NCBI GenBank assembly: GCA_012026655.1
Contig: JAAILG010000155.1
Location: 1 to 64,000, forward strand
Length of the DNA: 64,000 nt
Direction of reading: 5' to 3'
Origin: Hydrolagus affinis
Taxonomy: Eukaryota
Shown here: positions 14,616 to 55,894 of the stretch, piece after piece
Layout of the letters: each line of letters starts with the position of its first letter
Numbering within the stretch: position 1 is the first letter of the stretch
Made by a program: the position numbers and the translations under genes
Notes under the pieces: model-generated
The model's database searches: none
Seen by the model: only the letters and a program-made list of their open reading frames with translations
Told to the model about the DNA's origin: nothing

Positions 14616-15477
14616 CAGTTTACAAAAAAAACTCAAATGCTAATATAACAGCCATTTGGCAACTCGCTTACATACTGAAAAATACATTTATCATATACTC
14701 ATGTAATTATTTAAACTAAATAGTGCAATAATAGCTCATGGTTAATGAACTATATTTTTTAAGGTTGATTGGTCTCAGCCCTGATTCTTTAATCTTGCAC
14801 GCCATGCAAGTCAAAGTCTATTACTAGCACTCGATACAGAATTCACACATCATTGTTAGTGGATATTAATGGTGTAATTTCTTACGATACAACGCAATGA
14901 ATAACATTAATGCCTTGCGCTTCAGCTATCTAGTCCTCACCCCACTACCAAAGCACTTATACTGGAGGAGAAATGCTCCACTTTCTCCTCTTGAGGGCAG
15001 GGCACATATTTCCATGTCGTACTATCAGTTGCGTGGCTGGGATGTGCTTTGGAGACTGAATCTGCATTCTCTTGGACAACATTTACTTTCAATGGTATGT
15101 ACGATTTGTTTGTGAATTCTTCTGTGTTTTGTTTAAAACAAATCACAAATTGGGCTGGGGAAAACTGGGCAGCCAATTGCACACAGCAGTGTCCCATAAA
15201 CAATTGACGATTGAGTGACCAACTTTTTTTTGAAGAGGCATATCGTGTAATCACCCACCACCAGAGTGATCTCATTAATGTACCATCAATGTAGATCTAA
15301 GGATATGAATATCTTAACCCATATAAAGTGGCTTGTTTTTAAGCACTAAGTGTTGAGTGCCCAGCTGATAGCTGACCCATAAGCCTGTACTTTTTATTCT
15401 GTGTGAGCTGATTGAAAATATCCATGCTGGGAAACAGAACATTGTTAGTTCTTAAAAGCCTTTCCCTCCCGACATGC

Positions 15478-15590
15478 TCCAGTTCTGATGAAGGGTCATG
15501 GACCCAAAATGTTGACTCACTTTCCTGTCTCTATATTTGCTGCCTGACCTGCTGAGTGTTCCCAGCGATTTCTGTTTTTGTTTTACTTTT
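15478..15590 (+). mobile_element. Penelope-like pLTR repeat with a CpG-decayed minimal hammerhead motif
   Basis: agtt-CTGATGA-agggtc-atg-gaccc-aaaa-tgt-t-gact at 15481-15517, then tgctgcctgacctgctgagtgttcccagc as in 55573-55674. Confidence 0.65.
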
Positions 15591-15642
15591 CAGTACCCCA
15601 TCAACTAGTGCATTCTATCACAGATCCTAAAGGGAATGCAGA

Positions 15643-15809: not shown

Positions 15810-16960
15810 GTGTCCTGTGGCGCAGTGGTCAGCACGCTCGCCTCACAAGCTACACAACCCAAACCTTAAGCAAGTTTCCTTACTCCACACAACTCTGTTT
15901 ATCTAGCATTGAGTAGGAACCCGACTGTTAGTCAATTCGCAGATTCTTTCCAGGGGTGATAATTCCTAAAAAAAAAAATTGTTACTCAATTCATGACTAT
16001 TTGTGATACACCGGTGTGTGAAAGCGGCTGCTCCATTTTACTCACAAAATACACAAAATCGCTATTCCAGGTGTAATAATACCTCTAAAATAATAAGAAC
16101 ATAAGAGCAGGAGTAGGCTATTGAGCCCCTCGAGCCTGCCCCGACATTCAATAAGATCATGGATGATCTTCTAACCTAATTCCATTTACCTGCTCTATCC
16201 CCATAGCCTTCAATCCCTTAGAAATCTATCAACCTCAGTCTTGAATATGTTCAAGGACTGAGCATCCACAGCTTTCTGGGGTAGAGAGCTTCATAAATTC
16301 AGTATCCTCTAAGTGAAGAAAAGTTTCTTCAACACTATTCAAAAAGGCTGATCCTTAATCTTGAGACTATGACCCCTAGTTTTAGATTCTCCAACCAGGG
16401 AAAACAGTCTCACATTGTCAACTCTATCAAGCCCCTTATAGGTTTCTATAAGATCATCTCTAATTCTTCTGTATTCTAGAGAATATATATATATGCCTAG
16501 TTTACTCAACCTATCCTCATAGGTCAACCCCGTCATCCCAGGAGCCAACCTAGTGAATCTACACAGCAGCTCTTCTAAGGCGAGTATGTCTTTTCTTAAA
16601 TAAGGAGACCAAAAGTGCACACAATATTCTAGGTGTATTCTCACCAAAGCCACACACAATTGCAGGAAGACTTCTCTGCTCCTGTACTCTAACCCTTTTG
16701 CACTGAATGCCAACATGCTGTTAGCCTTTCTAATTGCTTGCTGTACTGGCATACTAACCTTTTGTGACTGGTGTAATAATAGTCATAATAATTTGGTCAC
16801 TGAATCCACCACTGTTTGTGGGACATTGTTGTGTACAATTGGCGTCTGTGTTTAGCCTACAAAATGTGCAGTCAATTCGCTTTGCAGTATATTCTGTGAA
16901 GCGCTTTGAGACGCATTGAAGATGTGATAAGGCGCTGTATCAAATGCAAGTATTATTATA
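15810..16960 (+). mobile_element. tRNA-derived SINE (long subfamily) interrupted by CR1
   Basis: Head gtcctgtggcgcagtggtcagcac at ~15812; core runs to ~16090 and resumes at ~16776, ending in the tail at ~16960. Confidence 0.7.
16094..16775 (-). mobile_element. CR1 LINE, 5'-truncated (ORF2 C-terminus and 3' UTR)
   Basis: ORF 16339-16752 VQQAIRKANSML..LVRIHLEYCVHFWSPYL..TRGHSLKI; aagaacataag tail. Confidence 0.93.
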
Positions 16961-18650: not shown

Positions 18651-19544
18651 GGATGCAAAAAGATTGCAACGGGATATAGATAGGCTAGGGGAGTGGGCGA
18701 GTAGGTGGCAGATGGAATTTAATGTGGGGAAGTGTGAAATTATTCACCTAGGTAGCAAAAATTAAAAAAAAAGATAATTTTCTAGATGGGGAGAGGTTAA
18801 ATAGTGTTAGTGTACAAAGGGATTTGGGTGTCCTTGTACATCAGTCTCAAAAAGTTAGTTTGCAGGTGCAGCAAGCAACTAAAAAGGCAAACGGTTTGTT
18901 AGCGTTCATTGCAAAAGGTTTAGAGTACAAGAGTAGGGAAGTCTTGCTGCAACTATATAGGGCCTTGGTGAGACCCCACCTAGAGTATTGTGTGCAATTT
19001 TGGTCTCCTTATTTAAAAAAGGACATACATGCCTTAGAGGGGGTGCAGCATAGATTCACTAGGTTAGTTCCTGGGATGAGGGGACTGACCTATGAGGATA
19101 GTTTGAATAAACTAGGGCTGTATTCTCTAGAGTACAGAAGAATTAGGGGAGATCTTATTGAAACATATAAGATTCTTAAGGGACTGGATAAAGTAGACAA
19201 TGAGGGACTGTTTCCCCTGGTAGGAGAATCTATAACCAGGGGTCATAATTTTAAAATTAAGGGTCAGCCTTTTAGAAAAGAGCTGAGGAAACATTTCTTC
19301 ACTCAAAGGGTAGTGAATTTATGGAATTCACTATCCCAGAAGGCTGTAGATGCTCAGTCCTTGAACATTTTCAAGGCTGAGATTGGTAGATTTTTAAAAA
19401 ATAGAGGGATTAGGGGATATGCGGATAGGGCAGGTAATTAGAGTTAGGTCAGAAGATCAGCCATGATCTTACCAAATAGCGGAGCAGGCTTGAGGGGCCG
19501 AATGGCCTACTCCGGCTCCTAATTCTTAGGTTCTTATGTTCTTA
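18651..19544 (+). mobile_element. CR1 LINE, 5'-truncated, relatively young
   Basis: 205-aa ORF 18824-19441 with LYRALVRPHLEYCVQFWSPY, RGDLIETYKIL, TRGH, FFTQRVVNLWNSL; 3' UTR ggggccgaatggcctactcc plus (ttcttatg) tail. Confidence 0.95.
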
Positions 19545-34077: not shown

Positions 34078-34130
34078 GGACAAAACACAAAATACTACAG
34101 ATGTTGGGAATCTGAAACAAAAAAATGCCT
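34078..34130 (-). mobile_element. Penelope-like repeat, 3' tail remnant
   Basis: aaaatactacagatgttgggaatctgaaac is the reverse complement of the tail at 55670-55700. Confidence 0.55.
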
Positions 34131-52910: not shown

Positions 52911-52961
52911 TACAATCAACTAAGATTGGGCATCCTGCTGTGTGCCAGTCACTGTTGTTTG

Positions 52962-53516
52962 GAATAAAAACAGAAGTGGCTGGGAACACTCAATAGGTCA
53001 AGCAGCATCTATGGAGAGAGGAAAGTGAGTTAATGTTTCTGACGAGAGGTCATCAACTGTTTGTGGGACACTGCTGTGTGCATTGTGTGCAATTTGGCTG
53101 TAGTGTTTTGCCCACAAATATACAGTCCATTTTCCTGCTCTCCTTCCCCCTACCCCGACCCCTCCCCTTGCCATCTTTTCCCCCTTTCTCCCCTAACCCC
53201 ACTTCCATGACTGTTTGTGGGACATTGCCTTGCGCAGTTTGGCTGCCACGTTTTGCCCACAAATATACAATCAATTTTCCTACTCTCCTTCCCCTGATCC
53301 CTCCCCCTCCTGCTCTGATCCCTACCTGACTGTTCAGCGCCTTGGGACATCCTCCCGATGTGAAAAGCGCTATATAAATATAATGATTGATTGATTGATT
53401 GATTGATTGAAATATTAACTCATTTTCCTCTGGGCACAGATGCTGACTGACCTGCTGAGTGTTCCCAGCTATTTGTGTATTTATTTCGGATTTCCAGCAT
53501 CTGCAGTATTTTGCTT
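52962..53516 (+). mobile_element. Fold-back Penelope-like pLTR element interrupted by a composite SINE
   Basis: Left arm 52962-53038 is the reverse complement of the right arm ~53409-53489, followed by the 3' tail gatttccagcatctgcagtattttgc; CTGACGA at 53039-53045 is separated from GAAA at 53409-53412. Confidence 0.75.
53056..53408 (+). mobile_element. Composite SINE-like element (two Deu-like cores, L2 tail, (GATT)n)
   Basis: actgtttgtgggaca..gcccacaaatatac..ttttcct twice at ~155-bp spacing; same family as 28275-28576. Confidence 0.8.
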
Positions 53517-54413: not shown

Positions 54414-55468
54414 AAATTAGATTCAAAACCTCACTGTTCTGGCTCAAACTAGGGACAAGGGACCAAATCAACCACTGATCTGTGCTTAAGCATTTACTGC
54501 ACATCTCAACAAAGTGATAAGGCGTTTTATCAAATGCAAGGATTATTATTATTATTATTAACAGCATTTACAGCAGCTCATAATAGCCTCGACCAGAAAG
54601 AATGAACTGAAATCCTCCGGGCTGACGCATGTAGCCACAATTTGTGACGAAGCGTTAACAGACAAAAGGAAAAAGTTTCAGAAGTTCATATTAAAAACAA
54701 AAGTATATCTTCATATTAGAGGGGATTGGGAGAGGAGGAGTCGCAAGTCGCAGAGCCTGTTGCTCAAAGATAATGAAGTGTTTTTTTGGGTGAACAGAGA
54801 TCTAGGGGAGTTAGCTGTCTATGCATCCATACATTGTTAAATTGCCAACATCAAGCATTCATTCTCAGCACAGCGCGCTGACACTGCTCGCTTTTAACTG
54901 CTGCACAGACGTGCACAGGCTGCTCCCAGGAGTGGGGGCATGAATATAAATCTACGTTATGGTTGCCCAGCAACTGAGAAGATAAACCGTTCACTGAACA
55001 GTTCCTGCACCCAGAATAACTACAGGGAAATGACAGAGGCCAGTTTCTCTGTGCACCTATTCGCTCATTGATTGAAAACCTTAGTTTATTGAGAATCATT
55101 CTCATCTTCACTTTAAAGTGGATAGAGAAGTGAGGCAGATACCAGGTTTCTCTTAGTCACACATTCTGAGTGTGGGTGTGTGTATATATAAATATATACG
55201 TCTGTGTATTTATATATATTTAATAAATATGTGTGTGTGTATATATTATATGCATATGTGTGTGTGTGTAAGTATGTCTTAGTGCATACATATGGGTAGC
55301 GAAGGTATTCAGTTCCACGTAGTGAAGTTATTCCCTAGTCCATACATTATATGATTTAACCACAAATGTACAATTACATTGTACATCCCCAATGTTTTGC
55401 TATTCGGACTTCTAAAATTTATATATTTGGACCCACTAAGGAACAAAAGAAATTTACCAAATGTTATG

Positions 55469-55705
55469 AAACACAAACAGAAATTGCTGGGAACGCTCAG
55501 CAGGTCAGGCAGCATCTATGGAGAAAGGAAAAGTGTACCAATGTTTTGGATCCATGACCCTTTGTCAGGGTTCTGACGAACGGCTGTGGACCTGAAACGT
55601 TGACTAATTTTTCCTTTCTCTATAGATGCTGCCTGACCTGCTGAGTTTTCCCAGCAATTTCTGTTTATGTTTCAGATTTCCAGCATTTGCAGTATTTTGT
55701 GTTTT
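55469..55705 (+). mobile_element. Fold-back Penelope-like pLTR element with two inverted hammerhead motifs
   Basis: ~102-bp inverted arms 55467-55568 and 55573-55674, plus a ~30-nt unpaired 3' tail; possible TSD TGTTATG (55462-55468, 55706-55712). Confidence 0.8.
55569..55605 (+). ncRNA. Minimal type I hammerhead ribozyme motif (putative)
   Basis: ggtt-CTGACGA-acggctgtggacct-GAAA-CGT-T-gact: intact core, helix I ggtt/gact, self-complementary ACGT helix III, degenerate helix II. Confidence 0.55.
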
Positions 55706-55894
55706 TGTTATGGTCGGAGAGGGACATAACTTAGCCCTGGAGAGCTAAATGCACACAATGTTTTAAGTTCTATCATTCTCCTTGGATTTATGGGACCTTG
55801 GTGTATGCAAAATGCGGTTGAGAGCTGGAAGTGCTAAAAAGATGCACTTTGGGATCAGTAAAAGCAAGTTATATAGCCTGATACTCAGTGTGGC

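Follow-up and report, generated by a model that had tools for sequence, protein, structure and literature searches.

A hairpin in Hydrolagus affinis interpreted as two short 3' ends of a Neptune-type Penelope-like element joined head to head

Inverted insertions of Penelope-like elements and the hairpin at 55462-55712

Insertions of EN+ Penelope-like elements (PLEs) have been described as carrying an inverted, 5'-truncated adjacent copy, a tail of 30-40 nt that is usually present at one end, and a short target-site duplication (TSD) (10.1101/2021.04.23.441226; PMC3846280; PMC8557442; PMC8969392). In the Anolis Poseidon element PAc, two reverse transcription start sites flank the tail, both target strands are nicked and extended, and hammerhead cleavage is not needed for insertion (Frangieh et al. 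2024, PMC11167929). Opposite-strand pairs of minimal hammerhead ribozymes (min-HHR) 100-700 bp apart are mentioned by Cervera and De la Pena (PMC4209133). Non-LTR retrozymes are non-coding units derived from the pLTRs of PLEs that contain a type I hammerhead and are arranged as head-to-tail tandem repeats with intact ribozymes (10.64898/2026.07.22.740005).

The window, by which we mean the whole 64,000-nt stretch of H. affinis DNA that was analysed, contains a fold-back structure that an earlier note had described as a ~102-bp inverted repeat around a 4-nt centre, with a tail of about 30 nt on one arm and a flanking direct repeat, TGTTATG. All of these parts were confirmed. The two arms of 102 nt each are 82% complementary, and the fold-back has a folding energy of -155.8 kcal/mol (z -18.7) that was matched by none of 200 shuffles. 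Its parts are as follows:

55462..55468, + strand: target-site duplication, left copy, TGTTATG, 7 bp; the last 2 nt overlap the end of the left arm
55467..55568, - strand: inverted, tail-less PLE 3' end (pLTR), running from C3 of the hammerhead as far as the internal end point (+100); subfamily B, the older one
55536..55568, - strand: decayed minimal type I hammerhead motif, C3 at 55568
55569..55572, + strand: 4-nt centre, which also serves the right-arm motif as its helix I 5' strand
55569..55605, + strand: minimal type I hammerhead motif of the right arm, C3 at 55573
55573-55579, 55580 and 55594-55597, + strand: core, bulged A and GAAA of the right-arm motif
55581-55585/55589-55593, + strand: helix II of the right-arm motif, 2 of 5 pairs broken
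between 55601 and 55602, + strand: predicted cut of the right-arm motif
55570..55674, + strand: sense PLE 3' end (pLTR), subfamily B; its arm of the inverted repeat is 55573-55674
55675..55705, + strand: PLE tail of ~31 nt, right arm only
55706..55712, + strand: target-site duplication, right copy, TGTTATG, 7 bp

We consider it highly probable that this hairpin consists of two short 3' ends of a Neptune-type PLE placed head to head, which likely arose in a single insertion and are now decaying, and whose hammerheads are both damaged and predicted to be inactive. The window copy has the inverted 5'-truncated copy, the tail at one end and a short TSD (7 bp), as do the published inverted-pLTR insertions, whose TSDs measure about 8-14 bp. 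It differs from them in that each half is shortened to about 100-135 nt, and therefore the whole insertion is a bare hairpin. With 7 bp, the TSD lies near the lower limit of the family range, and a match of equal score occurred in 1.5% of 2000 mismatched flank pairs. As in Anolis PAc, a hammerhead is followed by two putative reverse transcription start sites with the tail between them; the ORF of PAc starts inside the hammerhead (PMC11167929), whereas here the predicted ORF start lies downstream of the tail. With min-HHR the family has in common the core, the additional residue that separates position 9 from 10.1, the G10.1-C11.1 pair, the palindromic positions 15.2-16.2 and a short helix I (PMC4209133); in the window copy, one arm lacks G10.1-C11.1 and the other lacks G8 and G12. 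The supplementary alignments of that paper may already include this family. Like the retrozymes, the hairpin is non-coding, derived from a PLE pLTR and of hammerhead type I; unlike them, it is a single head-to-head pair with damaged motifs, and no direct repeat of the arm was found near it.

By eye, the + strand at 55605-55622 and 55655-55675 has pyrimidine tracts that end in TAG or CAG and look like 3' splice sites, and similar tracts were seen just before the hammerhead core in ORF-linked copies. Such tracts could permit exonisation or mark a PLE intron.

The parent element and its abundance in the genome

Linked RT and GIY-YIG reading frames, which the earlier note had proposed to look for, were found in the same genome. 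The arm is present in sense orientation downstream of the endonuclease match at 18 of 20 lower-ranked GIY-YIG loci that were fetched, the other two belonging to a second, unrelated PLE family, and in a second search 20 of 30 loci had it downstream as well. At locus L144, a single frame of 487 aa contains RT motifs together with a CX4CX2C finger and the first part of the GIY-YIG domain. Its match to PF00078 (RT) has an E value of 1.5e-6 and, with 28.6 bits, is just below the cut-off of 29.6; P0001 matched PF01541 above the cut-off. A search of PDB sequences with the 487-aa frame gave no match, and no fully intact autonomous ORF was found among the family copies examined. A near full-length copy of 3147 bp, L171, has a TSD of ~13 bp and consists of a partial pLTR with tail, the ORF region, and hammerhead with tail, the 5' tail sequence running on into the ORF leader. 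The left arm of the window hairpin is 79.6% identical to the 3' end of L171 over 103 columns, and the right arm together with the tail matches the final 136 nt of L171 at 89.0% identity.

A CX2-5CxxC finger between RT and GIY-YIG marks PLEs of the Neptune or Nematis clades (PMC8557442). Because RT, a CX4CX2C finger and GIY-YIG are encoded, we designate the family Neptune-type, an assignment made from domain order and finger alone, and Nematis shares such a finger.

The best 30 GIY-YIG matches in the genome had been considered as partners of the hairpin and were rejected: they represent a different PLE family that lacks the arm (one weak match, E 0.004). Loci L031-L060 and L080 form a second EN+ PLE family with RT, CX4CX2C and GIY-YIG (for example L047, G000:C36220:3215-6305, minus strand). 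Its 3' region has TAACCC-type telomere-like tracts, and short-period repeat arrays adjoin several of its copies. Tracts of this telomere-like kind are described for PLEs that lack an endonuclease, and targeting in this second family may deserve a look.

When the genome (1.11 Gb) was searched with the hairpin, 6006 first-look candidates were obtained. Forty were scored, and the best matches of the 39 besides the window copy have 82-86% identity. The family comprises two subfamilies, A and B, and hairpins come from both subfamilies of the autonomous element. The ORF-linked copy L180 has a B-type stem and yet an intermediate subfamily score, so that a purely B-type ORF-linked copy is not established. 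For an estimate of abundance, 140 stretches of 10 kb were picked regardless of content, all from contigs longer than 17 kb. The first blind sample (599.5 kb) had 9 head-to-head pairs and 14 solo arms and the second (799 kb) had 6 pairs and 12 solo arms; pooled, the 1.4 Mb contain 41 insertions, of which 15 are head-to-head pairs. Provided that the sample is representative, this extrapolates to ~30,000 insertions genome-wide, about a third of them hairpins. As one of these, and with damaged ribozyme motifs, the single locus matters little. Loci L017 and L024 have identical hairpins and flanks on separate contigs, as expected of a segmental duplication or an assembly duplicate, and were counted once.

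Hammerhead motifs and the host context of the window copy

The two oppositely oriented hammerhead motifs reported by the earlier note are at their positions, and the left one is decayed as it had stated, but the right one is not intact either. The right-arm motif retains the core, GAAA and GUU, while two of the five helix II positions do not pair, the closing G10.1-C11.1 position among them. Its helix I has 4 bp, two of them G-U, and in isolation the pair probability of helix II is at most 0.02. In the left-arm motif all five helix II pairs are kept; G8A and G12A, both CpG transitions, are present, the palindromic dinucleotide of helix III is lost, and the motif has no helix I 5' strand of its own. 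G8 and G12 are required for hammerhead catalysis. The G8C exchange is stated to abolish cleavage (PMC11167929). The two window-copy motifs are both predicted to be inactive.

Folding of the complete fold-back gave a probability of 0 for all nine ribozyme helix pairs on either strand, and opening the hammerhead core costs about 20 kcal/mol. In any transcript of the window copy, the hammerhead would be buried in the 100-bp duplex. As the motifs are on opposite strands, one transcript has one motif and no cis dimer. Self-cleavage by the window copy, which had been put forward as possible, is therefore unlikely, given the damage to both motifs and their sequestration in the duplex.

Folding was also predicted for other copies of the family. 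In the ORF-linked copy L176, the best structure contains helices I and II with pair probabilities of 0.57-0.99; in L180, helix II forms (about 0.74) and helix I does so poorly (under 0.09). Judged by these models, the minimal hammerhead of the family is genuine. All 11 core bases are kept in 17 of 63 subfamily B arms and in 21 of 37 subfamily A arms. Within subfamily B, 47 of the 126 cells at G8 and G12 carry a mutation (37%), a frequency like that of CpG sites generally (31%). In subfamilies A and B together, the 400 cells at A13, A14, A15.1 and U16.1 had no substitution, against 2.3-2.7% at other A/T sites. This is not what pure neutral decay predicts; possible causes are selection acting on the source elements, the sequence context and the alignment of the A-run. 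Among 109 arms, which show little divergence, one helix II pair switches from C-G (60) to U-G (42) between the subfamilies, and double changes are essentially absent. Rfam reported no hammerhead in the window copy, nor in two loci with near-intact family copies; its silence on the latter means that it is blind to this minimal form. Its matches to the window hairpin were all sub-threshold and chiefly to miRNA-type hairpins. The best explanation is that the hammerhead is a property of the RNA of the parent element and was passively copied into the hairpin.

Co-option of the window copy as a functional RNA in a host transcript, through self-cleavage, as an editing substrate or as a small-RNA precursor, must be weighed against these findings. 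The structure would form a stable duplex if transcribed, and the insertion is shared with contig set X1, where it is present at both junctions with flanks that differ by ~2%; an empty site was sought in these contigs and was not found, both junctions being occupied. No RNA run was indexed for the locus itself, which is evidence neither for nor against its transcription or its processing by ADAR or Dicer. RNA was available as three runs (X2-X4) from one sample of organism B, which is not the source species. In this RNA, family reads cover the element throughout and map to the arm in either orientation; neither splice joints nor stacked molecule ends were seen, and the one run that was compared with the locus had no reads on its flanks. 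Against co-option, both motifs are damaged, the window arms differ from their subfamily's majority at 9 and 11 positions, roughly half of these changes being CpG transitions, and none of the 27 window ORFs of at least 120 aa has a Pfam match. An excess of A-to-G changes was likewise absent from the DNA of 100 arms, with a maximum of one per arm, and thus no editing is fossilised there. As the Pfam scan covered long ORFs, the hairpin may be intronic. Taken together, we regard co-option as very improbable.

Since both self-cutting motifs are damaged and predicted to be inactive, the hairpin is an ordinary PLE remnant and a further member of the published 'inverted pLTR plus tail' pattern. Such stubs can pass wrongly for microRNA precursors, MITEs or active ribozymes.

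Ends, centres and possible insertion steps

The end-point statistics of the family inform the question of how inverted PLE ends with a single tail arise. The 3' ends cluster at two points, about +98-100 and +131-133 from C3, and both recur on solo and on ORF-linked copies. They agree with the pair of reverse transcription start sites on either side of the tail in Anolis Poseidon (PMC11167929). Among 32 copies with long upstream sequence, 16 have the tail, 15 lack it and one is of another kind. Exactly one tail was found in 14 of the 15 blind-sample pairs. A TSD score of at least 7 was reached by 28 of 42 hairpins (the duplicate L024 being left out) as compared with 1.5% of 2000 mismatched flank pairs, the best matches being 7-18 nt long, and by three of six in the replication sample.

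These data bear on the idea that the hairpin is a MITE or fold-back DNA transposon that has a hammerhead-like motif in its terminal inverted repeats by chance. Long inverted arms and a high copy number would suit such an element. Its TSDs should be of fixed length and its termini symmetric, but TSD length varies, the ends are asymmetric and the arms represent the 3' end of an element that encodes RT. The linkage to RT and GIY-YIG refutes this candidate, to which we assign hardly any likelihood, and the counter-case considered in the earlier note, DNA-transposon hallmarks with no PLE partner, does not apply.

The earlier note had favoured a PLE- or retrozyme-like origin. The PLE part has held, in that the arms represent the 3' end of an element with RT and GIY-YIG; the retrozyme-like, non-autonomous part is not supported. 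Such a unit, retrozyme- or SINE-like, would be transcribed and reinserted whole by the PLE protein. The great abundance of hairpins, their uniform size among the best matches and the single TSD that encloses the whole unit are compatible with this, and PLE pLTRs are able to mobilise sequence in trans (PMC3846280). However, hairpin centres, that of the window copy included, and arm starts vary from copy to copy, the starts ranging from -26 to +94. A few centres do recur (e.g. in L007, L008 and L018), which can be explained by a 3-nt microhomology. Moreover, hairpins derive from both subfamilies, solo and ORF-linked copies have the same two 3' ends, and the tandem array that defines non-LTR retrozymes (10.64898/2026.07.22.740005) is missing. 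Whole-unit reinsertion is improbable in our judgement, and the inverted ends were probably made anew at each insertion rather than as a retrozyme or MITE.

The 5' ends of the arms pile up just before the core. Of 146 arm matches, 18, 12 and 13 begin at -3, -4 and -5, respectively, and loose ends in X1-X4 stack at the same positions, where the depth of X1 drops about six-fold. Hammerhead cleavage as the origin of copy 5' ends was also considered and rejected, with just 0 of 32 and 2 of 24 arm starts near the cut site.

By analogy with Anolis Poseidon (PMC11167929), we infer the following course for the PLE insertion. The protein of the element would nick both target strands, and each 3'-OH would prime reverse transcription, one at the end of the tail and the other about 31 nt upstream. 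Both cDNAs would be extended to near the 5' edge of the hammerhead and joined at the centre, and filling of the staggered cut would leave the TSD.

In all 29 aligned pairs, both arms belong to the same subfamily class, 24 of these concordant pairs being subfamily B and mostly chosen by similarity to the window copy. Private variants common to both arms are only weakly enriched (13 against a null mean of 7.4; 193 of 5000 permutations). Both observations are accounted for if the PLE origin is the same and the second arm arose by fold-back self-priming of one cDNA, or from an antisense template, instead of by a second target-primed event; L103 and L138 are examples of shared private variants. Fold-back self-priming has been put forward for head-to-head palindromes of rotifer Penelope (PMC3846280). 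On its own it leaves unexplained the stop of the tail-less arm at +98-100, which is also used by solo and ORF-linked copies and which matches one of the two reverse transcription start sites measured for Anolis Poseidon (PMC11167929). We regard this route as possible but rather doubtful.

The lengths of the arms differ as well. In the discovery set of 40 one-tail pairs, a first arm-truncation test found the tailed arm shorter in 12 cases versus 1, and the same test gave 1 versus 0 in the replication sample. When paired differences were taken in both blind samples, the tailed arm was shorter in nine, longer in one and tied in four (p 0.02), a measure that was chosen afterwards and for which the single blind samples have p values of 0.125 and 0.25. 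The extreme is L102, whose tailed side is reduced to little beyond the tail (+94 to +131). The shortening of the tailed arm resembles L1 twin priming.

Tentatively, and with somewhat less than even confidence, we propose that the thousands of hairpin stubs record twin priming on one RNA. The strand begun at the internal start site would be copied unobstructed to a fixed 5' boundary of the RNA, 3-5 nt before the hammerhead core, and the tail-primed strand would displace it, often stopping early. From twin priming would follow exactly one tail, a shorter tailed arm and no 5' ends at the ribozyme cut. No paper on such a mechanism for PLEs was found by title in a literature search whose scope excluded most subscription papers. 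If the twin-priming reading is true, the family is a large natural data set on the PLE insertion cycle.

Elsewhere in the window there are four further partial family matches at three sites. At 52956-53513, a second head-to-head copy is split by a ~370-bp repeat that ends in a GATT run and appears to be inserted within the right-arm hammerhead of that copy. At 15448-15591 there is a solo arm that lacks the tail and has ~38 nt of pLTR sequence upstream, and at 34080-34123 a nearly tail-only fragment. A 699-bp inverted pair with 79.5% identity, at 16094-16775 and 18837-19528, is probably another repeat present in two opposite copies.
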